Assembly: GCA_024137785.1 (NCBI GenBank)
Contig: JAHRHZ010000082.1
Location: forward strand, 5,701,994-5,765,993
DNA length: 64,000 bases
Direction: 5' to 3'
DNA from: Ginglymostoma cirratum
Lineage: Eukaryota
The notes beneath the pieces were generated by a model. It was not told where the DNA came from. It did not search any database and saw only the letters and a list, made by a program, of their open reading frames with translations. The translations under genes and the position numbers were made by a program. Positions 750-63,000 of the stretch are shown piece by piece. Within the stretch, counting starts at the first letter, position 1, and the number at the start of each line of letters is the position of its first letter.

Positions 750-782
750 TTCTGATGAAGGGTTTAGGCCCGAAACGTCAAG
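750..782 (+). ncRNA. Minimal type I hammerhead ribozyme motif (PLE-associated)
   Basis: CUGAUGA (752-758), extra A, stem II GGGUUUAGGCCC (760-771), GAAA (772-775), palindromic stem III ACGU, GUC cleavage triplet ending at 779; 5' side of stem I is truncated by the gap. Confidence 0.7.
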
Positions 783-892
783 TTTTCCTGCTCCTATGAT
801 GCTGCTTGACCTGCTGTGTTCATCCAGCCCCATGCTTGTTATCTCGGACTCTCCAGCATCTGCAGTACCTTTTATCTCTGATAGTCATCTTC

Positions 893-1016
893 TGGTTGGT
901 TGGCTCGCTGAGCTGGTTCATTGTTTTTCTGCAGAAGTTTCATTACCCTGCTGAGTAACATCATCAGTGCAGCCTCCAATGAAGTGCCATTGTGCTTTCC
1001 CGCCTATTATTCATAC
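893..1016 (-). mobile_element. Penelope-like terminal fragment (family C) with hammerhead motif at 929-972
   Basis: Minus strand: CUGCA-CUGAUGA-U-GUUAC[UCAGCAGG]GUAAU-GAAA-CUUC-UGCAG, with a 5-bp stem I; flanked by GATAGTCATCT copies at 880-890 and 1017-1027. Confidence 0.7.
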
Positions 1017-1399
1017 GATAGTCATCTCTTTGAAAGAAAGCAATCACAAGTGATCTTAAAACCACAAAGCTCAAAAATAATGCAAGGCCTCACAGACCTT
1101 GCATTAAACAGATGGCCTTTCACCTTAAACTTTCACCAAGCACTCACAATCTCCTACTGTCTCATTGCGATATGACATGTGCAGCATTCATCAGTATATT
1201 GTCCCTAGAGAGAATCCATGACAATCCTTGACAGGCTCGATTTCACATTGTTTGGAGGAGTGCACTAAAACATAATTTGTAAGTGAGGTGAGTGTTGCTT
1301 TCTCACTTCACTAACAATGTGTTTTTTATGTTCCCGACTCAGCTTCATCGCAAGGGTATCACCGACGTCATTTGTTCCAGATCACACTGCTTTGTATTG

Positions 1400-2120
1400 C
1401 TTTCACTGAAATTTTCAGCAACGTAACTGGCTTCGCCTAGGTGCATGATGTCATAGACTGTACATAAGTCATGCTGAGAGGACCATTTCATAACAGAGCA
1501 CAGTCCACCAACAGAAAGGGAATCCATTCCGTCATTGTGCAAGTGAATCTGTGATCATCACTACCATATCTTAAAAGTTTGTTCCTTGTGCTCTGGGAGC
1601 TATCTTAATGCCTATGTCCTTGAGAACTCTCAAGTTCCTGCTGTGCTGGGGGTCCAAATGCCTTTCAAGGATGCTTCCTGATGGACAAAAGCTACCCTCT
1701 CAGACAATGGCTGAAGATTCCATGACACAGCCTCACCTCTGAGGCTAAGCATGGATAAAATGTTGCCCTTCCTTTCACCAGAGTCAAGGTGGATATGACC
1801 ATATTTCTGCTGAGCATGGTTTCTGATGCTTAGATTTGTCTTGCTTAAATTTAATTTGATTTATTGCAGTCACATGTACCTAAGTACAGTGAAAAGCTTT
1901 GTTTGGTGAGCAGTACAGGCAGATCATGGACCGGGGGGCATTTTGCATTACTCTGTGGACAGAATGTCCTGCATAAACCTAGCAAACTCTGCTCTGCACA
2001 ACTGGTGCAGACAAAGTAGGAAAATGATGGACTCTGAAGAGCTGGGAGAGTGGCAGGAATCTTCTGAGGAGAAGGAAGAAGAGAATGGGGATATTGAGCC
2101 GGAGGAACATCACATGCAGC
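1400..2120 (+). mobile_element. PIF/Harbinger (HARBI1-like DDE) transposase fossil
   Basis: Frameshifted and stop-containing translation: GFA*VHDVIDCT*V..NRKGIHSVIVQV/ICDH..GSYLNAYVL..MDKSYPLRQWL.., then GGILHYSVDRMSCINLANSALHNW and an acidic tail; matches Harbinger motifs IDCTH, NRKGxHS, GDxGYPL, LQYSP..LHN; interrupted at about 1755-1925. Confidence 0.85.
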
Positions 2121-2843: not shown

Positions 2844-3085
2844 GAGATAACCAGGTGTAGAGCTGGATGAACACGGCAGGCCAAGCAGCATCAGAGGAGC
2901 AGGAAGGCTGATGTTTCGGGCCTAGACCCTTCTTCAAAAATCATTTTTGAAGAAGATTTCTGAAGAAGGATCTAGGCCGGAAACGTCAGCCTTCCGGCTC
3001 CTCTGATGCTGCTTGGCCTGCTGTGTTCATCCAGCTCTACACCTTGTTATCTCAGATTCTCCAGCATCTGCAGTTCCTACTATCT
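2844..3085. mobile_element. Inverted pair of PLE family A terminal repeats (fold-back insertion)
   Basis: Left arm is the reverse complement of the right arm; hammerhead cores near the centre (plus-strand CTGAAGA at 2960-2966); 15-bp TSD CCAAAATCGATAACT at 2829-2843 and 3086-3100. Confidence 0.85.
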
Positions 3086-3129
3086 CCAAAATCGATAACT
3101 ATTCACTTTCGCGTATGACTCAGCCCAAT

Positions 3130-3262
3130 GTTTTAGATCTGTTGCCTTTCAGAGATGATAATTTTGTTTCTCTCTCTACTGATGCTGCCAGACCTGCTCA
3201 GTATCAACAGCATTTTCTGGTCGTGTTTAGACTGTCAGCATCACCAGTACTTTGCTTCTGCG
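3130..3262 (+). mobile_element. Degenerate PLE family B terminal fragment
   Basis: gatgctgccagacctgctcagt... similar to other family B copies in the window. Confidence 0.55.
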
Positions 3263-4962: not shown

Positions 4963-5560
4963 CAGAACGTAGATCTGTACAGCACAGGTATGGACCCTGC
5001 AGACCACGAAGTTGTGCCAATCATAATGCCAAAATAAACAAATCGCTTCTGCCTGCCCTTGGTCCATATTCCCCCCATTCCTTGTATATTCATATGCTTA
5101 TCTAAAAGCCCCTTTAACACCCCCATTGTATCTGCCTCCACCACCATCCATTGGCAGCACATTCCAGACTCCTACCACTCTCTATGTAAAAAAAATCTAC
5201 TCCTCACATCACAAGGGAAAAAGATTCTGTCAACCCTATCCATGCATCTCATAATTTTATAGGCTTCTATCAAGTCTCCCCACAGCCTCCACTGCTCCAG
5301 AGAAAACAACCTGAGGTTTTTCTAGCCTCTCCTTATAATTCATATCCTCTAATCCAGGCAGCATCCTGGTAAACCTCTTCTGCACCCTCTCCAAAGCCTC
5401 CACATCCTTCCTCTAATGTTGCGACCAGAATTGAATGCAGTACTCTAAGTCTTATAAAGCTGCAACATGACATCCTGAGTCTTTTCCTCAGTTCCCTGAC
5501 CAATAAAGGCAAGCATGCCATATGCCTTCTTTACCACCCTATCTACTTGCATGGCCACTT
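4963..5560 (-). mobile_element. CR1-type LINE 3' end, tail-to-tail with the previous copy
   Basis: Reverse complement of the CR1 ORF2 end (LERVQKRFTRMLPGL-like) and 3' UTR. Confidence 0.85.
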
Positions 5561-10370: not shown

Positions 10371-10680
10371 TGACTACAAAACTAAAACTCTACCATTCAA
10401 GTGATCATTCTTCAAATATGTCAGTGGCTCAAATGAGGTCACTCCGCACTTTTGAGTTTAGATAAAATTTGATGCAGACTTTTCATTGCTTTGTTGATGT
10501 GTTTATATTTTATCAATAACTCTCATTAACTGATGATGTAAATCTGTTTTCTTATGTCAAAATGTACAATTTCACTATCAAAAGGAAGGAATATGTCTTT
10601 GCAAGTTTGTCTAAATCTGTTTGATTTCTCGGGTTAGATGGTTTGGTGATTTCAGATCAGTGAAACAATGTGCGGAAAAG

Positions 10681-10890
10681 AAATAAAAACAAAAAGTGCT
10701 GAAGAAACTCAGCAGGTCTCGCTGCATTTGTGGAGAGAAACACAAAGTTACTGTTTTGATGACTGATTGAACACAAAATGTTAAGTCTGTTCTCTTTCTC
10801 CACACATGCCGTTAGACATGCTGAACTGTTCCAGCACTTTCTATTTTCATTTCAGACCTTCACCATCCACAGCATATTGCTGTTATTTGA
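10681..10890. mobile_element. Inverted pair of PLE family B terminal repeats
   Basis: gaaactcagcaggtctc.. arm followed by its inverse; near-perfect 11-bp TSD GTGC(G/A)GAAAAG at 10670-10680 and 10891-10901. Confidence 0.7.
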
Positions 10891-10904: not shown

Positions 10905-11000
10905 ATTTTCTGAAGAAGGGTCCAGACCCAAAATGTCAGCTTTCCTGCTCCTCTGATGCTGCCTGGCCTGTTATGTTCATCCAGCTCTGCACCTTGTTAC
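10905..11000 (+). mobile_element. PLE family A terminal fragment with decayed hammerhead
   Basis: CTGAAGA at 10910-10916, stem II GGGTCCAGACCC, GAAACGTC mutated to AAAATGTC. Confidence 0.75.
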
Positions 11001-11504
11001 CTTTAGCATTGTACCACTTATTCACTTCACAAAGGTGAGCAGAGCCTCTGGAAAATGATGTTATAAGAGTAATAGAAAAATAACAGCATGTAAGTTTCTA
11101 ATTCTTCATTGTTTGCATTACTTTATAAAACTAAAAAGGAGTAGCTAATGGCAAAATGTAATTCACTTTCTTTTCTTACATAAGTAGAAAGAGTTACATA
11201 TAGTTTCCAAAAGGCATGGCTGTATCATTTTTCTGTCAGACAGTTGAAAGATAAAAACAAATACCTATACCAAATGTTCCTTTCAGAAATACTGCTTCCA
11301 AGAACTAAGTTATTTGAACATAATACTATACTTCGTACAAGTAGAGAAGTGCTATTTGAGTTTTTCCTCTCTAGTACCTCCCTTCTACAGTGTTCACTGT
11401 TTCACCTTCAATCGTTCTTTACGTCCAAACCATCCAAATAATCTTTTGATGATTCAGTCTTTTGAAGTAGCACCTGAAAGTTATTAATGTAAAAGCATAA
11501 TGAT

Positions 11505-11692
11505 GGTAGATGATGGAAATTTGAAAAAAAATCAGAATAATCTGAAAATACAGGTCAGTCATTAACTGTTGAGACATCTGCATTTCAACTTGATGACTTT
11601 TCAGAAGAGAGCCAAAAGATCATCAACTTGAAATGTTAACGCTTACCGGATGCTGCCTGACCTGCTGAGTGTTTCCAGCATTCTCTGTTTCT
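11505..11692. mobile_element. Degenerate inverted PLE family B pair
   Basis: gatgctgcctgacctgctgagtgtttccagcatt on the plus strand, preceded by a decayed inverse arm. Confidence 0.5.
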
Positions 11693-14600
11693 CATAGATA
11701 AACATTATTTCTATCTTTGAAAACATCAGATCAATTTTATCCTGAAAGTAAAACATGTAACGCACAATTAAGTACAACATTACAATAATAATCGGTTTCT
11801 TCTGAATCTGTTAAGCTTTTGAGCAAGACATCAGAATTCACTTATATCCTGGACAGTGGCCAGTCAAGAGTCATACGTATGAAATTATTCTCATACACAG
11901 GTATTGACTAATGCTCCCTATTATCAGACTGACTTAGGTATAGTATTACTTTGACCACAAATGTTCCTAGGCAGTTTCCGATGACTGTCTTAGCAAAACA
12001 GCAATGAATGTTATATTTTAATCAAAACGTTGAAACAGCAAATAAGAGTATAGTGAATAAACATCTTCATTCATGAGTTTGATTAGATAACTCAGTAATG
12101 CACCCGATCTTATCAAGAGTTAACACAAACTTGTTTAACAGAAATTGAAGATGTTTATCAGACTATACCTCTGGTCATGGCATTTGTATGCCCTTCCATT
12201 AGTACCAGTATGCTATCATACTAGGTTTCAATTGATCTAGAGTAATCACCCTTTATGTTGGATTTCCCAAATGGTCTGCATTTAAAGTAGAAAGAGTACT
12301 AAAATTCCAGTGATAGCAATTGATTTACCTTACTAATAGTCACTACCATTGGCATACAGGTATATAGCCCTTAAGATTTGGATCACGTTAAACTAATTCT
12401 CCATTCTAGTGAAATGAATTATTGTTGAAATGGTCATTTTTTTAATATTATTATATTTTAAATGTTTAAAAATATGAGAAGCAAGATCTCAGATGCTCAC
12501 TACATCTGGAAGAAGCATAATTTTAAAGTTATGGTGATTGAGAAACTACCTTGTTTGGACAGATTGTACCAAGGAGATGTGATGCTAGATTTATTTATTG
12601 ATCTTATGCAAAATTATTTCAATTAAACACTTAAAATATGCCACACATTTTCAAAATGGCTTCTGTATCTTTATATTCTGCATAGATCCATCAAGGCAGA
12701 AAATGTTTTCATTTTCTCCTATCAAATTGAGAATTCTGTTCTCTCCGTTGATATTGTGCTTGGCAACTCTTTTATTTGTTCCAAATATGTTTCTCTCATA
12801 CTCTCTCATTCCACAAACACAATCAGACATGCGAGACAACTCAGAATTCCTAAAATAACCATTTTTATTCAGCCACATGTATTAATATCTTTGAGGTGAG
12901 GTCAACACTGTCAGCCAGTAAACAGGTCAAGCTTGTTCACATTCTGAGGGGAGCATTTACTGATGAAATTAATTTTCAGTAATAGTATGCATTTTAGAAA
13001 TTCTGTGAGACCAAGTACATCCATGTCTTAGCTAAACTAACAAATCATCAGACTATTCTCTCCATTTACAGTTGAGACTTCTTCACATTTCTTCATGCCT
13101 TTATGCCTAAAAGATCATATTTACTTGCATTTGTACTACCAAAAAAAGGGATATTATTCATAAACCTTTCCTTGAATTTGAAGAATAGTTTGACTTCCAG
13201 AATGTTCCTCAATAAAACTTCTGTATTTGCTGAGCAAGGAAAATGTATTCTCAGCAAATCATTACATAGCACTGTCTTTTTTTTAAATCAGATACAAAAA
13301 AAATTATAAATATGCAATGGTGATTATGTTAGCCCTATAAATACTGTAAGAATAATGCCTAAGGTGGACAAATGGCTACGACATGATGTCAATATGAATA
13401 TTTTAAGAAAAATCTCAAGAATGCTCTAATTTTAGCGTTGTCAGAGATTGTCAGCTCTATTTATAGAATATTTTAAAATGTTTTAATATCCAACCAGTCT
13501 TTTTTGCTGTTGTTGTTTTTCCACATTTACTCTTTTGGATGTGTGTTATTTCCAGTCTACAATTGTTTGCGTGATTACTGGTGAATCCCACTTTTCAGGA
13601 AAGTTACACTGAAGTCTTCTTGTACCCTTACCATGCAGCCAAGAGACGTAACCTTAGGTTTCACGGGATGGTAAGAAAGGGAGAAAGAAGGCGACAATTG
13701 ATGCAACGCTGAAACACCACGTTGTAACTGACAATTTTTTTCACAGAGACGGAACACAAAAACCATACTGTATCCTTTCCACCCACTTCCATGCTGTTGG
13801 GTACAAAGGAAACTTCAAATCTACACGCCATTTTTTGAATCATGTGGTGGAGCATTAATATCGGAAAAGCATTTTATTCTGAGCTACCGCCTCCAAAAGC
13901 ACCCACGCCATTTCCCGTAGTGCCACCGCCATTCTGTGATAGCAACATTCTGCAAACCAGCTGTAAAAAAAAGAAACAAATTACAGAGTGGAAATAACGT
14001 GAGTACAGAACAGAGAGCTGGCGGAACCAGGAACGTAGGAAACAGTGAAATGCAACGAGAGACAAATAAAGGTTATGACGAACGAGGGCGAATTAATAAT
14101 AATTGAATCAAATGAGAAAAAAATTGAAAGGTTATTGTTGTGAATCTGTTAATTTAATGCATGATTTTGATGTTTAATGGACTGAACACACGGACCATTA
14201 CACGAGAGAACCACGGGAAGGTCATTGTCATTGTATTCAGGCTTGTCCATTCCAGTAGATCAAAGCTCAGTTCTGACTCTGCAGCTGCTGTAGTCTACAC
14301 AAGTCTACACATTTAAAAAAAAAACTACGTGTTTATCCAAGTGCAGTGATTGTTTTCAGCCTGCAAGCCACTTTGATCACAAAGAGTACCCCCGTGATTG
14401 GAACCTAGGCATTCAAAGCAGACTTGTGGATGATTAATCGGAGAGTAATATCTGATCTTCGTCCAGGTTACCATTCAGTCACCAGTGTTTCCCAACCTTT
14501 TATCACCAAGTGGCCGTTGTTCAATCTGTCACCAGAATGCCTATTTCATTAAGATTTACTTTCTTACAGCATGCTCGGTAGGTTTGTGAAGGTAACAATC

Positions 14601-16059: not shown

Positions 16060-16590
16060 GGCTCAGGTATGTGCCTGGTCAGAAGGTAATGGGCTCAGTC
16101 TCCGCTCTGGAAATGAAGCACATAATCCGGGTTGTCAAATCTATACATCAATGATGGAACTACCACAATGGTGATGCTGTCCCTTGGTCGAGATACTACA
16201 TCAACGTCTTGTCTAATTGCCCCGACCTCTACTCCTAATCGAAAATAAGACAATAGCCGATGCTGTTCCCCCTCAAATAGCAACACTAACAGAACTAAAA
16301 ACAACAAAAAAAAATGCTGGAGCTCACAGCGGGTCAGACAGGACCCGTGAAAAGCAAGCAAGCTAACGTTTCGAGTCTAGATGATCTCCAGCACCTTTTG
16401 TTTTCAGTTCAGATTCCAGCATTTGCAGTAATTTGCTGCCATCACTAAGAGACATTACTTGGCTGGATATCTCATTGCAACTGCGCGAAAAATAGTCACC
16501 TTTCTTGGAAGGCAGTAGTTACCATAGGACAGTAACTCGGTGCAACTGAAACACATTCAGAAGCCATTAAATGCTATATAAAATGTAACA
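16060..16590 (+). mobile_element. Old Deu-domain SINE (SacSINE1-like) interrupted by a PLE family B inverted fragment at about 16290-16440
   Basis: tRNA-like head (ggtcagaaggtaatgggctcagtc..gaagcacataatcc), Deu-like core and tail aatgctatataaaatgtaa; similarity recalled from the consensus, not aligned. Confidence 0.55.
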
Positions 16591-20309: not shown

Positions 20310-20452
20310 ATAAAAGGTCAAAACTGCGGATGCTACGAATCTGAAACAAACATAGAAAGTGGGGGAGAAACTCAGCAGGTCTGGCAGCATTTGTTGAGAG
20401 AAAGGCAGAGGTAACATTTTCAGGATGAAATGACTCTTCTACAGAACTGACA
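20310..20452 (-). mobile_element. PLE family B terminal fragment
   Basis: Mutated hammerhead core CTGTAGA at 20438-20444 (minus), followed by the family B tail. Confidence 0.7.
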
Positions 20453-21944: not shown

Positions 21945-22065
21945 AAAGGAGCAGCAGATGCTGGAATCCAAGGTAGACAAACAGGAGGCTGGAAGAACAC
22001 AGCAAGCCAGGCAGCATCTGGAGGAGAGAAGCAGTCAACATTCCAGGTATTACCCTTCTTCAGGA
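21945..22065 (-). mobile_element. PLE family A-related terminal fragment
   Basis: CTGAAGA at 22057-22063 (minus), stem II GGGTAATACCT, decayed GGAATGTT, then cagatgctgcctggcttgctgtgttc. Confidence 0.7.
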
Positions 22066-26151: not shown

Positions 26152-27082
26152 CTGGAAATGGAGAATAAATTGATAAGTATTAATTGGGTTTCAAATTCTG
26201 GTAAGTAGCTTATAATCAATTAACTAAAGAAGAGGAATACAACTTAGATCTGTATACCAGCTCCACATTTAGCCACTGATTAATGAAATTTAAGTTGTGT
26301 TCTTAGCCACCTCAGTAGCAAAGCTCAAATTATACAGACTTAGATTTCCACCTTCTTACTTGTTTCACTTCCCTGGTCTAAAAGTTCCAACTCCAAGCCC
26401 TAAAGCACAGGCAAATGGCCATCAAGGTCTATTCCACTATCAATCTGCTTCATATGTTAAGGAGGAATCTGTGACATGTCTTAATCATTGATGACTTCCT
26501 GCTCATTGTTTCAAAGCATGAGATGCCAACTGTTCATACTAATCTATTCATTTATGAGTATAAGTGGTCTCGCAGTAATCAACATCAGCTTGTATTTAGT
26601 AACCCAGTTGACGACCACTACTTTTTGTTTAGTTACTACCAAAGTTGCTTCGGATTCTCTATTTATTAACGAATCTGAATAAGTTTACTTGTACCTGGTC
26701 TTTTTAAATATATTTTATGATATTCGGTGACTACAGATTGCAAATTTGGAACATTAAAGATTTGAGATTGTATTGCTAAACAATAGTATTGTTAAAGTAC
26801 ATCTAGATAATTTTGTACTCAAATTTCCATTTGCGTCCCTGCATCTATTTATGTCTTTCAAGAACATATTCACTTGCACTTTAGGTTTTGTGTCAACATC
26901 ACTTTATAATATAACATTGATATTTACATAGTTGCTTGCTTTAAGTGAGCATAAGGTTTGACTGTGAATATTTATGAAACTCAATTCGTCTTGATTAAAT
27001 GGAGCCAGGAAATATGTGATGGATTGCTCTAATCTGGTTCATATATAACACAAACAAACGAACATTCAAGGGTTGATATTAC

Positions 27083-39279: not shown

Positions 39280-39410
39280 TAACAAAGAATTGCGGATGGT
39301 GGAAATCTGGATCAAGAACAGAAAAGGCTGGAGAAGCCCAGCAGGTCTGGCAGTATCTATGGAGAGAAAGCAGAGTTAAAATTTCGAGTCCAGTGACCCT
39401 TCTTCAGAAC
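39280..39410 (-). mobile_element. PLE family B fragment inserted in a LINE tail
   Basis: GTT-CTGAAGA (39401-39407)-A-GGGTC ACTG GACTC-GAAA-TTTT-AAC. Confidence 0.75.
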
Positions 39411-42400
39411 AAGACAGCATAGGTCCTTTGTTTTATATTGGAAATATATTGCCGGTTCTTCATTGTTGCTGGTTTAAATTCCTAGAACTGCCTACCTGAC
39501 GGCCCCGTGGGTGTAACTGTTTCCCATGAACTGCAGTGGTTTAGCCGCCTTCTCGAAGGCAAAAATAGATGGGCGACAAATACTGGCATTGCTAGAAAGG
39601 ACCACATAAACATAAAATAAGAACAATCTCAATATTGTAAATATTGTGCTGAGCACCCGGACACCAGTTGCCCCGAATGTTGTCAATACCGAGAGCTTTG
39701 ATGAGCGAATACCCGACTAACTATGAGCTAAATTCCAATACCCGCCATGTTGAGGTAATGACACGTCAACACGTTGACACAAGACCGTGCCACTGAAAAA
39801 TATGGGCACCTTTGCAGCTGGTCTGTAGACCGAACAGGGCGTATTGCTCATTTGTATGTTGCAAATACCTCAATGTATTTGTTCTAAATGTAGCGATGCT
39901 AACAAAGGATGGTTTGTATAACTGCACGTCCCTACTGGTGTTTCACCAATATATTTGTGACGGCCCTGTCACTGAGTGCAGTCTATGTGGCGCTTTCGGT
40001 TGAAATAGTCCTGCGCTGTATTTGTTACAACGGAAGCCCTCTGCAGTTCTCGGGGCCTCCCCAGCACCAGCTGCACAACGGCTAACCTCTACCTTCCACC
40101 CCTTCCCTCCAGACCCATACCACATTCATTTAAATTTCACTTTCCCCATTGATATGGCGGTTATTTTGTTAAATTATCTGAAATATGATGGTTTGAAAAG
40201 AAAGCCCTAACCGAAGTGGCTAGCCCAGAGCTCTGAAGGTGTGTTCCTTTGGGAATCCAGCTATCCGACAGGTCATTTGTGAACTTTTAAAGCCGTGTAG
40301 CTATTCTCGAACAGAACAATAAATTGGCGGGTAGCTCCTTAACAGGTCGATGAGAGCGCGAGTACTGTGCTGTGATCAATAGGTTTAAAAATATTGACAT
40401 CTCACAATGCAGTGGGCATTTGAAAGGTTACGAGTGGGATTCCTGATTCCCGTTTCCTCTCTTTTGTAGATAGAGTAGAATGAAGACGATTGGCAGGAAT
40501 GATGGGATGGGGGATGGAGGACTGTTTCTGAATGACAGGCTCTGGGAGGCGGTGTCCCAATGTTGCCCCGCATTATGCCACTGGAGCAAAGTCCATTTTA
40601 GTTCGTCCATCGCTGCAGGTGGGCATTTATCGGCACACACACCTCAAGCGTTCGATTTGCAATCCGTTCCTTTACTGTTACTTCTCCGCACCTTTAGATC
40701 GAAGCCATGGTTTTGTAACAACTCGTCCCCTCTAAACCCTGGAAGCCCCCATGGAGTTCAGTCACACTGAAACACTCCGAGAATAGACTTCACATGCGTT
40801 ATCTGCACACATGAGCAGCCACAGTATTGCAGCTGTGCAGCTAGACCTTGCTCACAAGGCGTTAGACTGGAGGCTGCTCTGACATTTGAGCAGCACCGAT
40901 GCCCATGCAAATTTAATTTCTTTAAATAAATTGGTGGCTTTTGCAAAGATCGATCCTAACATAACGATTGTATTTTGGAGGTAAATCGGGAATCTTTACT
41001 CCAATGGGATTTAGTCTCGGGGCTGCAGCACATAACCCCAAATTATTCAAATGTTACAACATTGTTGGGAGCTGTTCACAAATGCCTCTGCCTTTGATTT
41101 TTGTATAATCGACGCAGTATTTCAAGTAACACAGAGGGCGCGGACTGATATTTTAAATGACTGAATGCGTGGATCTGTTGTTTTCGTAAAGGGGAAGATG
41201 TGAGCTCCCTATGTAGGAAACCAAAGAAGCAACAGCATGTTTCTGGGAGGAGACTTTCAGGAATCCACGGCGCCGCTGGGATGTCGGGCGGTGGAGGGGA
41301 GAAATCATCAACTCCATAATACCTCGTTGGGATTAAAATATTTACCGGGATTTACAGAGACGACATAATCACTTTGAACCGGTAAACGCCCTTTCCCACC
41401 CACACTCTATCCAGATGTGCGTTTTTTTCCTGTGGACCGTGGAAAATAGTTATTGGTCGATCAGTCACAGCTGCACTGACGCAGTCGCTATAATCTGGTG
41501 TATTTATAGTAACAGAGAGAGAGCGTACAGATGCCAATCTCACTGATCTCCAGATAGAGAGCTACAGAGTTAGCGTGGGTTTCTTTTCTGAAGCACCACT
41601 TCCCAGTTTGCACACACGCAGATTGTATCCACACAGGTACCAAAAAAAACCCTTCGCCCATTCGTGCTGTCCCTATAATGGGCCAATTTCACTTCAGTTT
41701 TACAGGGCACTGCAACATAAAGCAGAGTTTAAAACCTGTGTCACCTTCTCAGCTTTAGCCAAAACACCAGGATAAAATACACCATCAGTCTGTTCTGAAC
41801 TTCCAATTGCTGTGTCACGGTCACCAGCCTCATTTACAACCCCTTTCACACACCACCACCTTCAATCCCGTTCAAAATGTTGTTTCAGGATCTCTCGGAA
41901 TTATTCACATTTGACCTAAAACGACGTTGTCCCTCAGTCTATCCCGCATATGCTCTGGTTATTCGGTCACCACACACCGCTCATTTCAGAAAGACTGGTT
42001 CAGATTCAGCAGTCAGTTATGACTCAAGTCAGGATCAGACGGCGCACCTATAATCATGGCTTATGTTCTATGTGGCCCGTGTCGCACGCCTGAGGCTGGC
42101 CTTTTGACGCACATTATTTGTCTTTAAGCTCTGGAGACACTTTCCATTTGCGTCAGATGTCAGAACCGCCGGGAGAAGCCGGTTTTCCTAGCTGCTGCAT
42201 TTCTGTGTGAAAATAATAGAATTCCTTCAGTCATCTCCATGAGGAGCCGGGAATAGCAGTGGGTTCTGTTTCACTCCCAGCGATTGGGCTTTGTTAGAGG
42301 CAGGTGTTGGCATTGGACGTAGGGGTGTGTAGTGTGTGGAGGGTGCAGTTTAGTGACTGAGCATTTGTGCCTTTGACATTTCTGGGGAGTGAAAACGTGC

Positions 42401-43083: not shown

Positions 43084-43182
43084 GTAAAAAAGACATCTTT
43101 TCTGAAAAAGGGTCCCGACCCAAAACGTCGACTTTCCTGCTCCTCTGATGCTGCCTGGCCTGCTGTGTTCCTCCAGCTTCTA
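43084..43182 (+). mobile_element. PLE family A terminal fragment
   Basis: Decayed core CTGAAAA at 43102-43108; 15-bp TSD TTGCTAAGAAGACTA at 43069-43083 and 43183-43197. Confidence 0.8.
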
Positions 43183-43914: not shown

Positions 43915-44270
43915 TTTTTTTGCAGGATTTGAGCATTGCTGGTTAGGCCAGCATTTATTGTCCATTCCCAATTTCACTTGACAAGGTTTGGGCGAACTAT
44001 TGCAGTCCACGGAGTTAGGTACAATCACAGAGCTGCTAAGGAGGGAGTTCCAGGATTTTGACCCAGCAACTCTGGAGGAACAGTGATATGTTACCAAGTC
44101 AGGAGGTATGTGGCTTATAGGGGAACTTGCAGGTAATGGTGTTCTCATGTATCTGCTGCACTTGTACTTCTAAATGGTAGAGGTCATGAATTTGGAAGGT
44201 GCTATTGAAGGAGCCTTGGCAAGTTCCTCCAGTGCACATGATAAATGGTACATGATGTTGGTCAGTGGTG
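43915..44270 (-). mobile_element. LINE 3' tail fragment (same family as 6890-7875)
   Basis: ggccagcatttattgtccattcc.. gggagttccaggattttgacccagc. Confidence 0.7.
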
Positions 44271-45119
44271 CTATCTTAAAACAAAACCAACACATAGCAG
44301 ATGCTGGAAACTGAAGTCAACAGATCTGAGGAGACTGAAACAAAATTGTATTCCAGGCCAATGAACTGACGCAGAACAACAACTTTGCAGATGCTGAGTA
44401 TTTCAAGAAATTTCTTATTTTGTTTCAGGCATTTTAAGAAACATCAATTTTATTGTACAATCTCACCATATCAATTTCATTTTCACAGTAAATGAAATTA
44501 AGAAAAAAGCACCCACATAATACTCATGGATCCCCTATGGTACTGTTCACACTTACAGGGAGAGGTGCAATTAATAAAACATTAGGAATTAAGTGAAGAG
44601 AGTGGCAACTGTTGGCAATGGGCATAGAAAGGGGCTAAGAAAATTGAAGGGCAAGGTAGATGACAGCCAGAAAAAGCTGGGGAAGCAAGCTGAGAAGTCA
44701 CTTTACTATTTCTAAAAGTAGTAAGAATAACACTCATTACTCGTATGGTGATATCCATTGACTTCAATGTCGCGAGAATGTTACAATTTTACAAAGAATG
44801 TCAATATATTATTACTCAACCACATAGTCTGAATTCCTGATGCAGAGTGCCTAAGTATTGACATCAAAATCAAGCAAAGTTGGAAGGTGAGTGATAACTG
44901 GATAACAATATTACCTTCTTCAGTTTATTTTCTTGTGGTTTTCTCCTTCCCTCCTTTCTTGAAGTATTTATTTCATGCTGGTATACAGTTCTACTCTGAG
45001 TAGTCACCCTCTGAAACTTTAGTTAATGGCCATTATTCATGTGTAAATCAAAATGTTGCAGTTAAAACCCCACTATTTAACAAAAGAAGGAGGAAAGCAA
45101 GTGAAAAATCACAAAGCTA

Positions 45120-45890
45120 TTAGTCTAATAACAATCAGAGGGGAATGATAGAATAAATATTAAAATGTGTGATAACAGGGCATTTAAAATTTATTGGCTT
45201 GACCAGAGTCTATGTGGATTTATTAAAGGGAAGTGATGTTTATAAACTTTTTTTTTCAGAATGTAACCAGCAGAATAGATAAGAAAAATAGTGGACGTGG
45301 TTTTGAGATAACAAGCATGGGGCTGGATGAACACAGCAGGTCAAGCAGCATCTTTCAAAGGCCTTTTCATAAGGTCCCACATGAGATTAGAAAACAATAT
45401 TGAAGCACGTAGAACTGGGCGAATATAATGAGTTGAGAACCTGTTAATAAGGGGTCTGTGGCAGGCACAGTGTGGTGTCTCTCTGACTGAGTCAGGGAGG
45501 CCTGGGTTCAAATCCTACCTGCTACAGAGATGTGTAACAACATTGGAAAATATCGAGAATTGGTTAACAGATAGAATGCAGAATAGGAGTAAATGGGTCA
45601 TTCTCAGGCTTGTAGGTTGTGTCTAGTGGGACACCGCAAGGATCAGTGCTTGGGCCTTTGCTATTCTAAAAGCTATATCAATGATGTGAAATTAGACATT
45701 GTATGTAATATTTACAAGTTTACAGATGTCCAAAGCTGGTGGAAGTGTCTGGTATGAGGAAGATACAAAAATGTTTCAAGGGGATTTAGAGAAGCTAAAT
45801 CAATGGGCAAAGAAATTGATAGAAGGGATACAATTCACTGAAATGAGTGGTTCCCCACTTGGTGGGAAAAATAACATTACAGAAGGTGGA
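45120..45890 (+). mobile_element. CR1 RT fragment with nested PLE piece (45305-45352) and SINE (about 45452-45545)
   Basis: VDVV..FQKAFxKVPH and SGTPQGSVLGPLLF motifs. Confidence 0.8.
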
Positions 45891-45929: not shown

Positions 45930-46280
45930 TCAGAGTTGACCTGTCTCTTTCACTTACATTCCCCACTCTGCCCCATTTGTGTCTTGCTGACTTTGGTCTC
46001 TGCAGATCTGACCCATTTTCTCCTTTTCACATATTCAATTACACCCATTTAACAATGTCTATCATTTCTTTACAACCATTATCACTGCCTTTCTCTTTTG
46101 CTCTGGGCACCCTCATAATCTGTTCCGTGTGCTCTCTTCCCCTCTGTCGATAGTGTAAAAAGCTATCACTTCTCTCTTTTCAGTTCTGAAGAAGTAATAC
46201 TGGACTCAAAACATTAATTTTGTTTCTCTCTCCACAGCTACTGCCACACCGGAGCTTCTCCAGCACTTTCTGTTGTTATT
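45930..46280 (+). mobile_element. PLE family B fragment with pyrimidine-rich upstream region
   Basis: CTGAAGA at 46186-46192, then ctggactcaaaacattaa and the family B tail. Confidence 0.6.
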
Positions 46281-48125: not shown

Positions 48126-49924
48126 TGTTTGTTAAGCCTGCTAGGCCCAAAGCATCACGAGGTCACCCTGCAAGGACATTTACCTTCTCCAGTTTGGGAA
48201 TACATTGGGGTGGCATCCTGATGTGGCTTCCTCCTATTTTTCTAGTTCATCCGTCCACAGTGAGCAAGGAAAAATCAGCCCTGAAAATCAACAGCTGGCC
48301 TCTAACCATTGTGCAGTGCTAGGGTAACACTGATTAGTAGTAGGAGGTCAGACCAAGGTATACAAGACACAGGCATTAAGAGAACGTACAAGGGTAATTA
48401 AGGGGTCATTGGACTCAAAATGTTAATTGTGTTTTTCTCTTTACAGATGCTGCTAGATCTGCTGAGTTTCTCCAACAATTTTTATTTTTGTTTGCAATTA
48501 GTTCCAAGATGGCATCATAACCTGCTGCTCTGAAAGCTTAAATTGGATATTCACTGTGTGTGTGCCAACACCTGGACCAATATGGTGCCTTGGACAATTA
48601 CAAGTATTAGCTGTTGATCTGTAAGAGGGTTGTTGTCTCAGTTAAAGGCAGGTGCTAACAAACCCAATTTCTTATCATAATATATTCAAAATGACACCTT
48701 TGAATTGGTTGAACTTCAAATTAGTAATTTCTCGATGATTATGGCAGCTTCAGTTGAACTATAACCCTGACTGCAGGGGTGAACCCTGATCAGTCAGAAG
48801 CAAGAGTGCTATCACGAAGCCAAGGGTTGTACTAGTGACATAATATGCAGGCTAAATACAACAGTAATAGTTCTGTTTCACCTTCAAAATACTAAACAAT
48901 ATGTAGGCAGAAGTGATTGGTTTCACTACATTAGTCAGACATTAATAGAATGAAAACCTCCGTATACATAAGATTGAGGAATATTCACATGGGTTTGAGT
49001 GCAAGTGAACTCTGCAATCCACATGGGAATGTAGAAATAGACATGCATACTTTTAACTCTCTAAGATTTGTGCCCAATGTGAAGGATTCTGAATTGTCAA
49101 AGATTACCAGACACTGTCTGGAAGGACTCAACAATACAAAAATCAAAACAATCATGCTTCTGAGTAGAGCTAAGCTGCAGATCATTAGCTTTTCTTTGAG
49201 AGGTGTGCAGCATTTTGGAGCACTCAGAAGATGGCATACCTTCAGTAGCCCTTGCTGAATGGGTCTTAATGCATGGGAAATAAGAAAGCCTGACTCGGAC
49301 CCTCTCTAGCTTTTCTCAATGGTGTCTTCAGTGCTAAATAATAGAGGCACTCCCATTTGCAAATCCACATATAGTCTGCAAATCCGTAATTTTGGGAATG
49401 CAGAGTTCTGACTGATCTGCCAACAATACTAATGAGAAAATATGCAGGCAAAGTGACACCAACTTTTGGTATCACACTCATAACATAGCCTACTTATTAT
49501 GGTACTTCCTCCGGGAATACTTCGCTGCAGCCACTACTAAAATGGCTGTAGTTATTTGAGGTTGAAATTTGAGGGAAATGGCTTGAAGGGCTAACCTTCT
49601 TGACCTTATTAATACATGATAGAATTAGAATTAAACTGCTGCTTTTTAGGGCAGGACATTTTACTCCATTCACTATGGTAAGTCTACTGAAGAGAAAGAC
49701 CCAGGTCATTTTAGTTGAAAATCTTGCTACTAGCTGTGACAAAAATACAAATAAACTCAGTCACCTGTGATTCTATTATGTACTCAAGCAAAAAACAGCT
49801 GAAATTTCAAGTGATCTATAGTATTAAAAAGTCAATTGATTATTTTCACCATTTTTCTTTGGTATATGTATATAGGTATATTCTTCAGCCTGTTCTCCAT
49901 CTACATTTCTACTAACTTTTTAAG

Positions 49925-51514: not shown

Positions 51515-51765
51515 AACTGGCTACCTCCCCAGCTACACTCACCTTTACTGGCTCCATCCCCGCCTCTTTGACTTGTCTGTCACCTCTCCACCTATCCTCT
51601 CTTCTATCCATCTTCTATCCGCCTCCCCCCTCTCCCTATTTATTTCAGGACCCTTTTTCCCTCCCCCATTTCTGATGAAGGGTCTAGGACCGAAACATCA
51701 AGCTTTCCTGCTCCTATGATGCTGCTTGGCCTGCTGTGTTCATCCAGCTTCACACCTTGTTATCC
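51515..51765 (+). mobile_element. PLE family A 3' region with hammerhead motif
   Basis: Pyrimidine-rich stretch, then TTT-CTGATGA (51672-51678)-A-GGGTCTAGGACC-GAAA-CATC-AAG and the family A tail. Confidence 0.8.
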
Positions 51766-53221
51766 TGGAAATTGCCAGAGTGTGTTTGATTTGTCAGCAC
51801 AGATAGGACACATTTGTGCCTATGCACTTCAAAACCAAACTTACTGTAAATAATCCAAAGGATTAACAGAATAAAAATAACCTAGTAATTGGCAGTCAGC
51901 ATCGTTTCAGATGAGAGAGAGGTTAAACCTTTTTGTGTCTCCCCAACTGACAGTGTAGCATAGGTAAAAGTTTCCTGACACAAAGATAGACTGCGTTCTT
52001 AATGGAGTCGGCATCATGGATGATATGAGTAAGAAATTGGCTGACGAGGAATAACAGTAGCTATTGGTTGAGTGCATGATGTTGGGCTGAAAGATTTACT
52101 GAACAATGCTGGAACCTAGATTTAGAAATGAAAGTCGATTTGGTAAAATACATTGTATATGAAATTGGTGGGGTTGGTAGCCAGACTCTGGGAACAATAC
52201 TAGGACTTTGACAGCATTTACAGAAGGATAACAGAAAAAAAAAACTTTACAAGAAGGGGAAACATTAACTTTATGAATAATGTTGAAGCAGTGAGGGGAC
52301 TAATAAAAAATGAAACTAGCAGAATTCTGAACCATTCTGCTAGAACTCTAAAGCTGTCATGTTTATCATCTTCAGCGCTTTATTCGGGTCATACTTTGAG
52401 GAATGCATATAGTTTCGGTTACCCAGGTGCAAAAGAAACATATATTTCCTGCAGTAATACAGAAAAATACCACAAAGTTGATCTCAAATGTCAGAGGATT
52501 GAATGCTCAGAACTGGTTAGAAAAAAATGCAAACCCTTCAGCCTTGAAAGGAACTGATTGAAAGGAAACAGAGGAATAAAAGCGTCGAAGCTAACTAGAA
52601 GTAATAAATCCATAGGATATTAACTTTAAACTTCAACTGCAACCTGAGGAGCAATTAGTGAAAAGCAAACTCAGGATTGAGGAAAATTCAACACCACTTT
52701 CTATGGAAGGGTAATCTAGACAGACTGAATAGTTAACTCCATCAGCATTTACCATTGTAAATTGAATAAGGACAAAGTTTTAATAATGCGGCCCACCAGG
52801 AAATGTATTTTAATTCATTTTAAATACTATATGAATGTAACAAATCACAATAAGAAGGTTACCAAAACAGTAGAACTTTCCATAACTTTATTTCCCAAAT
52901 CAAACAATTTAAGATTCACATTATTCTTTGGAAGAAAAATGCCTGAGATTGAACAGCTAATTCTAAATTTTAATTGCGATTGAAGAATATGTAAAAGTTA
53001 TGCATTTAAGTCCTTGAGCGATCAAGCCCACTTACATGGTTAAAAGGTACATCTAAAACCAAAATCATATTGTTGGCCAGTGCAAAAAATTAAATTTTCA
53101 AAAAACAATGTTAAAACTAATGTCATAATTAAAAATGACCAAATTAGATCAAATACCAATTGAATTATTTATTTATAATTAAAGATACTTTCATATCAAA
53201 TAGGAAGGAAATGTGATAATA

Positions 53222-53460
53222 AATTCAGGAAGTGCTGGAGAAACTCAGCAGGGCTGGTTGCATCTGGGGAGAAAGAAACAAGAGTTTAATGTTGAATCCA
53301 ACCTGATGAATTCAATTTCGTTCTGCAGAAAAATCATACTAAACTCAAAACATTAACTTTGTTTCTCACTCAACAGATACTGTCAAACTTGCTGAGTTTC
53401 TCCAACACTTCCTGATTCATATTTCAGATCTCTAGTATCTGCAGTACTTTATTTTTATTT
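53222..53460. mobile_element. Inverted pair of PLE family B terminal repeats
   Basis: aggaagtgctggagaaactcagca ... tgctgagtttctccaacacttcct. Confidence 0.75.
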
Positions 53461-55040: not shown

Positions 55041-55845
55041 ATAGAGTCACAGAGTCACACAGCATGGAAACAGACTCTTCAATCCAATCAGTCCATGCCG
55101 ACCATAAACCCAAACTAAAGTAGTCCTACCTGCCTCTGCTTGGCCCATAACCCTCCAAACATTTCCTATTCATGTACTCATCCAAATGTCTTTTAAATGT
55201 TGTAATTGTACTCACATCCACCATTTCCCCTGGAAGGTCATTCCATACATGAGTCACCCTCTGTGTGAAAAAATTGCCCCTCTAATCTTGAACTCCCCCA
55301 CAATAAGAAAAAGACACCTGCCATTCACCTTATCCATACCCTTCCTGATTTAATAAGCCTCTTTAAGTCAGCCCTCAACCTCCTACACTCCAATGACAAA
55401 AGTCCCAGCCTATCCAGCCTCTCCTTATGACTCAAACCCTCCATTCCAGGCAAAATCCTTGTAATTCTTTTCTGAACCCTCTCCAGCTTAATAATATCTT
55501 TCCTATAACAGAGTGACCAAAACTGGATACAATACTCCAGAAGAAGCCTCACCAACATCCTGTACAACCTTAATATGATGTCCCAACTCCTGTACTCTAA
55601 ACATTTGAGCAATGAAGGCAAGCATACTAATTGCCTCCTTAATCACCCTGTCTACATGTGATGCAAAATTCAAAGAATTATGTACCCAAACCACTAGGTC
55701 TCTCTGTTCTACAACACTACCCAAGGCCCTACTTTTAATTGTATAAGTCCTACCCTTGTTTGTTTTACCAAGATGCAATACCTCGCATTTATCCATATTA
55801 AACTCCATCCGCCACTCTTCAGCCCATTGACCCAACTGATCAAGC
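55041..55845 (-). mobile_element. Relatively young CR1 LINE 3' fragment (frameshifted ORF2)
   Basis: ORFs 55503-55886 (WAEEWRMEFNMDKCEVLH) and 55325-55621 (LEYCIQFWS..LERVQKRITRILPGM) are the CR1 ORF2 C-terminus. Confidence 0.92.
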
Positions 55846-56019
55846 TTCTCACTGACGCTAATCGAAGATCCCTCAGACTGAATCAACTCAAGATTTAGAT
55901 CTTGAACGAATGTACTCCTCCAATATTGCGCTTTAGATCAGTCGCCTTGTGGAGTTGATTTTATTTTTTAACCGATACCAGAATTTTGAGATAACTTTAT
56001 ACCTAAACTGGTAAAACTA

Positions 56020-59000: not shown

Positions 59001-61700
59001 GACAGGAACTTGTGAACTCCAGGGACCCAAGGAAGCAATCCCATCGCACCCCACTAACCCTAACAAATACCATACCACACTCCACACCTATTCAATCCCC
59101 AAACACCACCAATCACTCTATCATGAAGTTAGTAAGTACTAACTAGGGTTCACATAAAATTTCTTTCTGGAAAATCATAATGACTAATACTTAAAACAGA
59201 TGTCATTTACTATTCCCTTATTAATGGCCCTATTTAAAAAAAAAACACATTCTACCACACTCCCTTCACTATGGCACGCATTTTTGTATGACTTCTGCAT
59301 ACAGATTCTGGAGTATTTACTGTAAAGTACTACATGGTTATTAACTACAAAATCAAAGCCATGTTAATAAAAATGTGAAAAGAATGGATGATAGCATGAT
59401 TCTTGCATCATAGTTTTAATGAATGGGTAAATGCATACTGACTGAAATTGTATCCACAGCATTTAAAGAGGTAATTCCATACATAATTTTATACCAGATG
59501 ATTGCCACAAAATATATGTATGGGAAAGTCATTATCATTTCAAGATGTTAATTTTTAAAAGATCAAGAAATGCAAAGTGCTACAAAATAACTAAACTTCG
59601 CAGATCAGAAGCAGAACCTAAAAGAGGACCATAAATAATGGTCTCAGCTGATTGGATGCATCACTTTTAAAAGTTTCTTTTGCAAGATTAAATGTTTTGA
59701 GATCAGAATAATTTTTCACAAATACCCAGTAAAATTTTTTCCCTTTGTGATTTAGACTTCACCGCCAATCCCAATTTTCATTAATGTTACAGACATGCTA
59801 TTTACAAAGTAAACCTCATTTCAAAATTCAATCAGACAGCCTAAAAGTGATCAGAAGTTTCAAATCCAGAGATGATAAGTAAACTTGCTCCTGAAAACAC
59901 ACAGCCTTTCTAACCTTGATATCGGCCAATTTCTAGCTGATGCTCATAGTCCAATAAGCTTAGTCAACCAGACAACATCAGATAAAAGAGCCAGCCTTCC
60001 TAGAGTGAATACTAATTAGTCCATTATCATCCAACACCAATACATTAAACAACCTAGACTTCAGGCATGAAAGGGCAATGTTCTAAGACAAGCAATCAGC
60101 AAACCCACCTTCCCAACCTTCTCTAAGGTTGATGTTATGTGCTAAAACTCTGAATACGAACTGAAACTCTCATGTGACAATATTACCATTAACTTTGATC
60201 AGTAACTGAATGGGTAAAGTCATACTTCCCAAATGTTACAATAAAACACTTTTATGTACAATGTAAAACCGTATAGTTTGGAGGTGTTCCAGCATTCTCT
60301 GTGAGACAATAATAAAATTGCTTTCAACGATAAAAGAGCAAAATTCAATTTCCCTTTTACTGACTTAAACAACATTTGAAATGGTCTCAAACTCTTACAT
60401 ACTCAGTCTTTACACTCCTCCCTCAATTTTTAATCAATCAATATCACTTTTATTCTGTAGTCTATGACTTGAAAGAGAGTGAAAATAGGTGGCAATGAAT
60501 ATTTTGAAGTGAACAACACAGTGATTTTATTTCACCTGCTTGAGTTTGGATATAGCTGTCCATGCTGCAAGTAAAACTATTAAATAGGCAATTAAAATTG
60601 AACATATTTGCATTTTAAACTTTTAAATTTTAATTTTTAAAGATTGCTGGGTGTTACTCAGATAGGCTCAAAAATAAAATTAAAAAAAATCACAAGATAA
60701 TTAGTGAACAAACCAGACTTTGTGTCAGAACTAATGCATACTAAAATATTAAACTGCCCACTACATTGGAAACATTCCAATCCCAGATTTATGAAAACAT
60801 CAACAATACACTGCTGTCAGTTTGGCTAAATACAGCAAAATAATTTTAAAAAAACTCCAACTTCTTTGGACAACTTGGAAAGAAGGGCCAAGATCTGATT
60901 TGTAACACAACGATGTGACTTATACCCAAACTAATGCAGGCAAAATAAAATCATCATGTCGATCACTTCAAAGTATTGACTATAACCAGTTTTCAATTTT
61001 AGTTTTCTCATTAGTACTTATACTTTCAGAACACTCAAACTATTTGCTACCACAGCTACTTTAACAATCAAGAATCTAAGTTGCCTCAAAACATCAACTA
61101 CCTAAAACTCTAGAGATCTGCAAACACTTCTTTTGAAGATAACCTGTTACTTGGAAATGTGTAAATTAGTAGAAGTTCAAGCATTTAACCCTAATTTTTT
61201 TCAAAGTAAACCAGTTAGAACAAGGAATAAAAATATGCTATGTTAGAACAATGCTTTCTGGGTGTGGCCAGTGGGTTAAAATTCTAATTTAGACCAACAT
61301 TGCTTGTGGGCACAATTATACTGAAACTGCAGGATTCTGACAATAAGCATATGTCTGACATTTCTACCAGTCAAGGTGTCTGTACCCATGCTTTTAACTT
61401 GTGCCATTAGAATTCGTTTGTTATTTCTTCCATCCTCTCAAACACCATTAATTTTTTTTAAAAATACAACAATCAAATTGAAATGGTTGCCCAGAATTCT
61501 CCAGATATTTTTCAAACCTTTCAAGATTTCACAAACAATTTCTGAATTGATGGTCGAGTTCTAAAATGATCAGCAGTCGTCATACAAATTATTGACTGAG
61601 TGGTATTTTATAATGTTTATGATACTGAGAATACAGAAAGATGTGAAGAAATGTGTTTTAAAAGACAAGAGGTGAAATTTTAATATCATAGAGTGAAATG
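56020..61700 (-). other. Putative long 3' UTR of an upstream minus-strand gene (TBC1D16 expected by synteny)
   Basis: Repeat-poor and U-rich on the minus strand; overlapping AATAAA at 56047-56056 followed by a GU-rich tract; Pumilio motifs; no coding exon seen in the window. Confidence 0.3.
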
Positions 61701-62469
61701 GTATGGGAGCAGTGGATGGTTAAAAATACTATAATGCCCTATTGTGAAGTTTGTTTAAACCCACCTTCTTTCAAGGACGGCATGCTCAGCAGTGAGCAAG
61801 AAAGCCCTGGAGGGAGGCAGGATGCCAATTTGAATATGTTAAGAGGTAATTAACAGTTATTTTAACAGGGTTTTCATCTCTAACTGTAGGCACACAGGTG
61901 TCTCAGGCTTCCTGGATCTCTCCAGTGAAAATAATGCAAGAAAACAGCAGCAAACGAGGGAACTAAAATGGAACAGGCAAAAAAAAATCCCATAAGTACT
62001 GACAACTCAAGCTACCTCCTTCCCTAATGAAAGGCATTTGCTCACAGGAGTCAGGAGTGCCAGAACCAAAACCACATGATTACATGATGTGGCTTAGAGC
62101 AAATACTTGAGATGTGAAAGATTCAGGTGCCGCGACAGTTGTAATCACCCTTCAGTGCTCACCAGCAATGATTACAGCTACAGAAACAGCAATGTAAGAG
62201 GAGGCGAAGCATAAACTGACTATGGTACAAGGAGGCCCAACTGCTGTCCTGGACGTCCTAATAAAGGCAAGATTTAGTTAGGCCCCTATCAATGTGTCCA
62301 CCTGGTAGCCACAGTGACTGCACCACTGCACCAACCACCAGTATCCCTGCCCTCCATCAACACAAACCAAGAAAACTTCCTTTTCACTGACAGCAATTGC
62401 TCAATTTAGTCTTGTCCTACTGCTCATCACATGATGGAACTTGCCAGGCAGCAGAGAAAAGCAGTCAAG

Positions 62470-62806
62470 ATATGAAATAGGAACAAAGGAGCAGTAATAG
62501 GCCATTCTGTCCTTTGTGTCTGCTCCTCCATTCAATTATATCTGGCTGATCATCTACCTCAATCTTTTCCTCGTGCACTCTGCACATATCCCTTGATGTC
62601 ATTAGTACCCAGAAATCTATCAATTCATATCTTCAACATGCTCGTTGATAGAGCATCCATGCATCCTGGGTAGAGAATTCCAAAGATTCACCACCTTTAA
62701 GTGAAGAAATGTCTCCTCACTTCTGTCTTAAATGGTCTGTCCCAAATTCTGAAACTGCATCCCCTGGCTCTAGATTCTCAAGCTAGGGGAAACATCTATC
62801 TACATC
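62470..62806 (-). mobile_element. CR1 3' end
   Basis: ctgggtagagaattccaaagattcaccacc..gtgaagaaat. Confidence 0.75.
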
Positions 62807-63000
62807 CAAAACAAATAAAGATGTGGATGCTGGAGATCTGAATCAAAAACAGAAATTGCTGGAGAAACTCAGCATGCCTGGCAGAATCTATGGGCAGAAA
62901 GCAGAGTTACTGTTTCAAGGCGCTGGACTCGAGACGTTAACTCTGCTGATTTCCCACACAGGCTGCCAGACTTGCTGAGTTTCTACAGCAATTTCTGTTT
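62807..63000. mobile_element. Inverted pair of PLE family B terminal repeats inserted in CR1
   Basis: aaacagaaattgctggagaaactcagca ... tgctgagtttctacagcaatttctgttt; 13-bp TSD ATCTATCTACATC at 62794-62806 and 63001-63013. Confidence 0.85.

Follow-up and report, generated by a model that had tools for sequence, protein, structure and literature searches.

Hammerhead-bearing repeats at a Ginglymostoma cirratum locus appear to be truncated stubs of Penelope-like retrotransposons, probably copied from capped, uncleaved RNA

Short repeats built around hammerhead ribozymes crowd a 64,000-nt stretch of Ginglymostoma cirratum DNA (G000:C82:5701994-5765993, in a genome of 4.36 Gb; "the window" below denotes this whole stretch). 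From which elements do they come, and was the RNA that was copied to make them cleaved or uncleaved? A sequence-only reading of the window had counted about 20 such repeats in at least three families, of which it described A, B and C, and had taken them for Penelope-like element (PLE) or retrozyme-like units. Judged by the sequences that surround them, the repeats appear to be 5′-truncated stubs of the pseudo-long terminal repeats (pLTRs) of autonomous Penelope-like retrotransposons, families A and B being of Neptune type and family C of Poseidon type, clade names that rest on motifs. We consider it probable that the short A and B copies of these pLTRs began at internal start sites of reverse transcriptase (RT) in a capped, uncleaved RNA and ran off its 5′ end after 100–135 nt.

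Two profiles, one from six A copies and another from six B copies, were run against the window and, as a control, its reversed sequence. The B profile found 24 A or B arms with E-values up to 0.01, and the reversed window gave no match even at E ≤ 1; the A profile found 19, again with none in the control, and the list from the B profile contains the A arms. Together with family C the total is 25 arms at 20 sites, covering 2.55 kb, and all 12 places named in the sequence-only reading hold a copy. Its choice of the region at 752 as the most intact also stood, since 752–779 is the sole window copy with a complete core (G-C closing pair and ACGT palindrome both kept), with C779 as the predicted cut base. 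About half of the named places, however, are tail-only or core-less stubs; the copy at 22063(-), given as family A, belongs to a separate, more distant subfamily; and the one at about 62920, rightly called B-type, is actually a head-to-head pair in which both arms lack CUGANGA. A descriptor of the minimal hammerhead passed four window copies (752, 967-, 27489- and 39407-). An Rfam scan of the window matched no hammerhead family.

Abundance was estimated in a contiguous sample of 1.06 Mb consisting of the window, the adjoining 200 kb and four 200-kb stretches elsewhere. The descriptor matched 92 places in this sample and 0–2 in each of 10 dinucleotide shuffles, and the resulting ~88 matches per Mb extrapolate to roughly 380,000 per genome. 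Arm densities per Mb were ~140 for A, ~124 for B, ~9 for C and ~30 for a fourth family, D; the window, with its 24 A/B arms in 64 kb, is of the same order as the sample mean of ~260 per Mb. Across the genome, the exact 28-nt family A motif has 31,579 copies (control, 0), a 35-nt family B pattern has 34 occurrences and a family C query returned 2,891 candidates.

The sequence features of a minimal type I hammerhead are all present. Eight natural exemplars retain CUGANGA, one extra base, G10.1-C11.1, GAAA and a four-base palindrome, and U16.1-H17 and the palindromic form of stem III complete the set. The extra base after A9, which the sequence-only reading had pointed out, occurs in 89 of the 92 descriptor matches, and the closing pair is G-C in 66 of them and G-T, a product of CpG decay, in 22. 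The palindrome is ACGT in families A, B and C, in line with the claimed ACGU, and AGCT in family D, a compensatory swap of CG to GC. As had also been claimed, the families differ in their stems and keep the pairing: pair 2.1-1.1 is T-A, A-T or C-G, and pair 10.3-11.3 is G-C, T-A, C-G or A-T, a covariation seen between families, not within them, among exemplars chosen by a descriptor that itself requires stem II. Monomer and dimer folding energies were discounted as evidence of an active dimer because the stem II palindromes pair too.

Among 82 young A copies, the four core CpG positions are changed in 12–13%, against 0–4% at most other invariant positions (positions after +1, which are confounded by a one-base subfamily offset, were excluded). 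The whole core is kept in 36 copies, and a CpG change is found in 33 of the 46 broken ones; the statement that most copies are inactivated by CpG decay therefore holds for the window and not for young A copies genome-wide. Because the core CpGs (C11.1-G12 and the palindrome) decay at this rate yet are retained in all families, selection on the hammerhead in master lineages is suggested. Kept through CpG pressure, with covarying stems and a palindromic stem III, the ribozyme is likely to be functional in master elements. PLE minimal hammerheads have been found to cleave weakly, and only as dimers or trimers (PMC4209133), and PMC6765202 cites work on dimer cleavage by Lunse et al. The window copies themselves are fossils, passive stubs that have no upstream promoter and show no sign of host function.

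The parent elements were recognised from what lies 5′ of the hammerheads. In family A this is a pyrimidine-rich untranslated region (UTR) and the end of a GIY-YIG endonuclease. The window has one such piece in the inverted arm at 103–349 (−) of a family A insertion (103–879), which comprises the last 53 codons of the endonuclease (349–191), with 53 of 53 residues identical to a full-length protein (P0001), together with a portion of the 3′ UTR; counterparts of this piece (349–103) occur at 14 of 20 A loci, two of the loci being one site. A Pfam search with the 53 residues gave no match, and the linkage to RT and GIY-YIG is therefore taken from other loci. A 212-residue RT piece has 44,341 candidates in the genome, and all 150 matches that were scored are stop-free. 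Among 20 stretches fetched around RT matches, L117 runs from a hammerhead through its tail into an open frame of 1,049 codons, P0001, in which RVT_1 (29.7 bits; cut-off 29.6) and GIY-YIG (23.4 bits; cut-off 22.6) both score above the Pfam cut-offs and DKG, YIDD and a CX4CX2C linker (residues 898–906) are present. A pLTR is thus found on both sides of the frame, after it at the A loci and before it in L117. The family A protein also contains a variable-length Ala/Thr/Pro-rich repeat between its N-terminal helical part and the RT (L117:3800-4140).

Vertebrate PLE groups are Neptune and Poseidon (bioRxiv 2026.07.22.740005), and a CX2-5CxxC linker distinguishes Neptune and Nematis from Penelope/Poseidon, which lack it (PMC8557442). 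A family B hammerhead lies within 500 nt of 11 of 39 divergent endonuclease ends, one of which (L078) has the linker, and B appears to be an older Neptune-type relative of A. Family C loci run upstream into endonuclease and RT without the linker zinc finger (L032 frame) and are on that account placed with the Poseidon type. We presume this name in part from resemblance, and for both B and C the coding linkage was made by tblastn and motifs. With these linkages and the descriptor, the earlier identification of three families of PLE minimal type I hammerheads was borne out. Family D (31 matches in the sample, none in the window, often as inverted pairs) is linked to an endonuclease at one weak place only. 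A literature search, which did not extend to Repbase or Dfam, turned up no paper on these families and none reporting a cap signature in PLEs; families A, B and C may already be catalogued in repeat databases.

Mechanistic information comes from three properties absent from the sequence-only reading: a fixed 5′ start, two fixed 3′ ends and an architecture of pairs. We collected 146 unbiased A arms and dropped 22 that adjoin gaps, leaving 124 with resolvable 5′ ends. Counted from the predicted cut, 31 of these begin at −32 to −30, none at −36 to −33, 23 over the next 193 nt upstream and 1 at +1, while 12 run further. In family B, 47 of 129 arms begin 2–6 nt before C3, the same place as in A. 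This start lies 4 nt before the core and, in family A, 31 nt behind a TATA-like box. Its first base in A and B is the A of an initiator-like YYANWYY and is at the same time the outermost pair of stem I, with the TATA-like box ~30 nt upstream; the box is found at −31 in 13 of 20 A loci, those that retain the UTR, and ~30 nt before the initiator-like site in the family B seeds. A splice acceptor at this position, considered because an intron of D. virilis ends at helix I, was rejected since family A has no AG there.

The base before the start is also altered. The templated C is replaced by G in 1,564 of 3,571 A copies (44%) and 856 of 1,826 B copies (47%), where 24–26% would be expected. Inspection of 30 cases with A or T identified 7 as point mutants with UTR, so that the true share of G among junctions is higher; at +1 junctions, by a hand count, G stands in 14 of the first 100 listed. 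Retrotransposon RTs can copy the cap as an extra G, and the fixed start and the G excess together are likely to reflect run-off copying at the capped 5′ end of uncleaved RNA.

Several observations weigh against this interpretation. At many junctions the G could also have come from the partner arm or the target, and a clean duplication with a single G was found in only 2 of 30 cases. A exceeds T as well, and purine-biased untemplated addition may contribute to the G excess. Among 30 family C copies there is no pile-up of starts. The only mapped Penelope promoter, that of D. virilis, is internal and TATA-less (PMC2377424). Finally, poly(A) RNA-seq (50,145 aligned reads from an unstranded run and 110 from a second) gave no peak of molecule starts or ends, and 85% of aligned reads continue into unrelated sequence, as would read-through of dispersed copies.

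At the other end, A arms stop at two fixed places, +63 to +69 and +96 to +104 from the predicted cut; these lie ~36 nt apart and appear to represent the optional tail of PLEs. Arms are frequently paired: 64 of the 146 form 33 head-to-head pairs, with 3 tail-to-tail pairs, and same-strand neighbours at up to 700 nt number only 10. Of the 33 head-to-head pairs, 26 combine a long arm with a short one (39% expected; P = 5e-6) and none has two long arms. A target duplication of 9–16 bp flanks 21 of the 33 and, since the paired arms lie inside one duplication, each pair is a single insertion, most readily accounted for if both nicked strands act as primers, each at a different internal start site. 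Both the inverted 5′-truncated copy and the optional tail of endonuclease-bearing (EN+) PLEs were thus found, and no microsatellite targeting was seen in the target duplications. Five of the 20 window sites have duplications of 11–15 bp; the longest match in 300 random pairs was 9. Between the arms of inverted pairs the assembly very often has a gap of 100 or 400 N (L001, L014, L243, L261 and, dividing the family A insertion 103–879, window 350–749), which indicates that the hairpins break assembly and that long pairs are under-resolved.

In the cycle that we propose, the upstream pLTR would serve as a TATA and initiator promoter, with transcription starting at the first base of stem I. The element protein would nick both target strands 9–16 bp apart, and each strand would then prime a cDNA of its own, using one of the two internal start sites. 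The cap would be copied as the extra G, and long copies would result from priming in the downstream pLTR. Cutting by the hammerhead would remove a 31-nt capped leader and is likely to be unnecessary for most insertions. A more far-reaching version, which we offer tentatively, would take a million dead stubs as a record of the Penelope cycle in vivo, in which the hammerhead is the first structure of the capped RNA, the twin-primed uncut run-offs carry the cap G, and a minor cut-site class shows cleavage in germ cells; loss of the leader might then act as a switch out of translation when two copies meet in a dimeric particle.

The same elements might instead owe their start to processing, either through nicking of the pLTR at ATT by the element's own endonuclease or through an RT that, on reaching the edge of stem I, leaves the template or jumps to another. 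The enzyme of an Anolis element favours 5′-ATT-3′ in its own pLTR (PMC11167929), family A has ATT exactly at the start, this start is the outer pair of stem I, and many junctions are fold-backs with short fillers. We nevertheless regard processing as unlikely, given that family B shows the same cliff without ATT and that a TATA-like box at a fixed distance and an excess of G are common to A and B. Moreover, an RT blocked by structure is expected to stop on its 3′ side, not at the 5′ side where these copies end.

If the main template were a product of the hammerhead, with cleaved RNA (circularised or not) undergoing reverse transcription as proposed in PMC4209133, this would account for the retention of core and palindrome in all families and for an excess of ends at the cut. 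Genome-wide we counted 980 junctions at +1, and 395, 361 and 406 at the control positions −12, +5 and +11. Scaled for pattern odds, a rough correction since the junction patterns differ downstream, these become ~1,750, 790, 910 and 720, compared with ~4,500 at −31, and starts at the predicted cut site are about twofold above the three controls. By hand classing, 30 inspected +1 loci comprise 3 mutated full copies, ~6 local-palindrome fold-backs and ~20 true junctions, and the +11 control holds more fold-backs than +1. An AA microhomology and a short palindrome inflate the +1 count, however, and the controls use other downstream words. In the unbiased set a single copy out of 124 begins at +1, on which ground stubs beginning at the cut site were rejected as the main route, and the 31 copies that start 31 nt earlier keep the whole core. 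Circles would allow long copies but leave the −31 cliff unexplained. A cleaved main template is, in our judgement, very improbable; the twofold excess is a lead, not proof, for minor use of cleaved RNA. Among RNA reads, the cut-site joint was seen in 0 of the 15 shown of 225, in a poly(A) library unsuited to small circular RNAs.

Even less credible is the suggestion that these are non-autonomous retrozyme-like units multiplying through small circular RNAs and tandem arrays. Short hammerhead units are the commonest by number, animal retrozymes derive from pLTRs (bioRxiv 2026.07.22.740005), and a single three-unit tandem of head-to-tail hammerhead-tail units of ~130 nt lies outside the window at G000:C1:3505110-3505508. 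The definition in the same source, however, calls for tandem units with a full hammerhead in each, and the arms here are mostly head-to-head within target duplications when they have a close neighbour, with no tandem at the 20 window sites; unit ends do not fall at the cut site, and the sequence is continuous with an autonomous element. On these grounds the retrozyme part of the earlier interpretation was abandoned. Domestication of some copies as ribozymes regulating a CBX gene in the window can be practically dismissed, for although one B copy sits in a CBX intron in sense orientation, it lacks C11.1 and the palindrome, and the density of the window is ordinary for the sample.

At the left end of the window, insertions are nested. 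Beyond the assembly gap, the family A insertion continues at 750–879 (+) with the intact Neptune hammerhead, predicted to cut after C779, and a long tail (profile and descriptor). The left copy of its 14-bp target duplication is at 90–103, positions 90 and 879 sharing a 14-nt match; none of 300 random pairs exceeded 9. Next to it is the family C (Poseidon-type) pLTR stub at 890–1011 (−), whose hammerhead (972–929) has C11.1 and the palindrome mutated and whose 11-bp duplication is at 880 and 1017. One target word occurs three times (90–103, 879–892 and 1017–1027), family A having inserted at the left edge of an older C insertion; since the opening bases of C fall within the A duplication, one nick site served first a Poseidon and then a Neptune element. 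A second family A insertion is a head-to-head pair of a short arm at 2844–2941 (−; by profile, C3 mutated) and a long arm at 2956–3086 (+; stem II broken), with a 15-bp target duplication at 2829 and 3086. This pair scores as a plant microRNA (miRNA) precursor at 2879–3019, and such pairs could be mis-annotated as miRNAs or enter small-RNA pathways; the Rfam matches there to MIR842, MIR5185 and MIR528, which fall below gathering scores and arise from the pair, were rejected.

Two further A stubs begin at the fixed 5′ site: 10907–11002 (+), in which both core CpGs have decayed, and the older A-type copy at 43099–43182 (+), with a 15-bp target duplication at 43069 and 43183. Only a tail is left at 45305–45352 (−), and the copy at 51521–51764 (+) retains 150 nt of UTR with a TATA-like box and an initiator-like site, upstream of a hammerhead (51672–51699) with broken stem II and palindrome. 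Family B stubs have decayed cores at 20322–20448 (−) and 46182–46280 (+), a broken palindrome with intact stems I and II at 39288–39411 (−), and decayed C11.1 and palindrome at 27383–27491 (−), the copy in the CBX intron on the gene's own strand. The profile also placed a B tail at 3153–3247 (+), a B stub without CUGANGA at 48398–48506 (+), a weak B-type remnant at 44269–44364 (−; E 0.008), and an old B-type head-to-head pair with decayed cores at 10677–10872 (10759–10677 minus, 10758–10872 plus). Two other B pairs are at 53215–53446 (53300–53215 minus, 53320–53446 plus) and 62822–63007, the latter without CUGANGA in either arm and with a 13-bp duplication at 62794 and 63001. Related subfamilies are represented by a decayed stub at 11614–11695 (+) and an old head-to-head pair at 16297–16430 (16387–16297 minus, 16385–16430 plus), both by profile, and by a stub of a subfamily between A and B, with a broken GAAA box, at 21952–22065 (−). 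The tail of family B, as at 48420–48450 (+), has a pyrimidine tract followed by CAG and ATG ~20 nt past the cut site. This word resembles a splice acceptor, and copies lying in introns could make it available to host genes.

The CBX (Polycomb chromobox) gene occupies 24763–30150 (−), with chromodomain exons near 30120, 29958, 29588 and 27121 and a long last exon containing the CBX C-terminal motif; we take it to resemble CBX4. A two-copy direct repeat at 32945–33844 (period ~513 nt, 89–91% identical) is unrelated to the hammerhead families. RT fragments like those of long interspersed nuclear elements lie on the minus strand at 5321–5549 and 55413–55937 and are presumably of CR1 type.

The class of element is already known, and families A, B and C had been correctly recognised as PLE hammerheads; the value of the present data lies in the statistics of a very young and very abundant family. 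What PLE hammerheads do is still called unclear (PMC8557442), and the single element that has been reconstituted worked from uncleaved RNA (PMC11167929). Since the predicted start, cap copy, priming sites and cut site are base-precise and frames are intact, template identity and in vivo cleavage become directly testable in a Neptune element. In practical terms, the repeats, at ~300 arms per Mb, resemble miRNA hairpins and coincide with many gaps in the assembly.

Compared with the PLE minimal hammerheads of Cervera and De la Pena (2014, PMC4209133), the repeats share the extra base between 9 and 10.1, G10.1-C11.1, the palindromic 15.2-16.2 and a helix III without a loop. They likewise occur as several families per genome, mostly as single truncated copies, with opposite-strand pairs 100–700 bp apart. 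They differ in number (~380,000 by extrapolation, where coelacanth has 4,000 and Xenopus 9,000), in the stem II of family A, which has only 4 bp, and, in contrast to the cleaved or circular templates proposed there, in mostly keeping the uncut core; the searchable files of that paper's supplement, all but one, have no shark entry. With the Neptune EN+ PLEs of Craig et al. (2021, PMC8557442) they share a single frame of RT and C-terminal GIY-YIG, DKG, the CX2-5CxxC linker, an inverted 5′-truncated copy and a 30–40-bp tail at one end only, and depart from them in the long Ala/Thr/Pro-rich N-terminal stretch and in the lack of visible microsatellite targeting.

Poseidon of Anolis carolinensis, PAc (Frangieh et al. 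2024, PMC11167929), is alike in having a tail defined by two internal RT start sites, in using both strands, which were cut and extended in vitro, in placing the hammerhead at the pLTR-ORF (open reading frame) junction, and in taking unprocessed, uncleaved RNA as the dominant substrate. Its ORF begins at stem II, unlike the long frame of family A, which begins ~100 nt past the cut site, and the available parts of that paper report no transcription start or cap signature. Penelope of Adineta vaga (PMC3846280) has head-to-head pLTRs in one duplication (8–10 bp there), junction palindromes, an optional tail, and a putative TATA box and initiator in the pLTR. Its inversions are explained in that paper by self-priming, possibly on antisense RNA, whereas the asymmetry of long and short arms in the present pairs agrees with twin priming of sense RNA at two positions. 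Animal non-LTR retrozymes (bioRxiv 2026.07.22.740005) are also short, non-coding, pLTR-related and equipped with a type I hammerhead, but they form tandem arrays of complete units, unlike the dispersed single or inverted stubs with target duplications described here. The repeats thus show every feature of EN+ PLEs and of PLE minimal hammerheads that was tested, and it is by their lack of tandem organisation that they stand apart from retrozymes.

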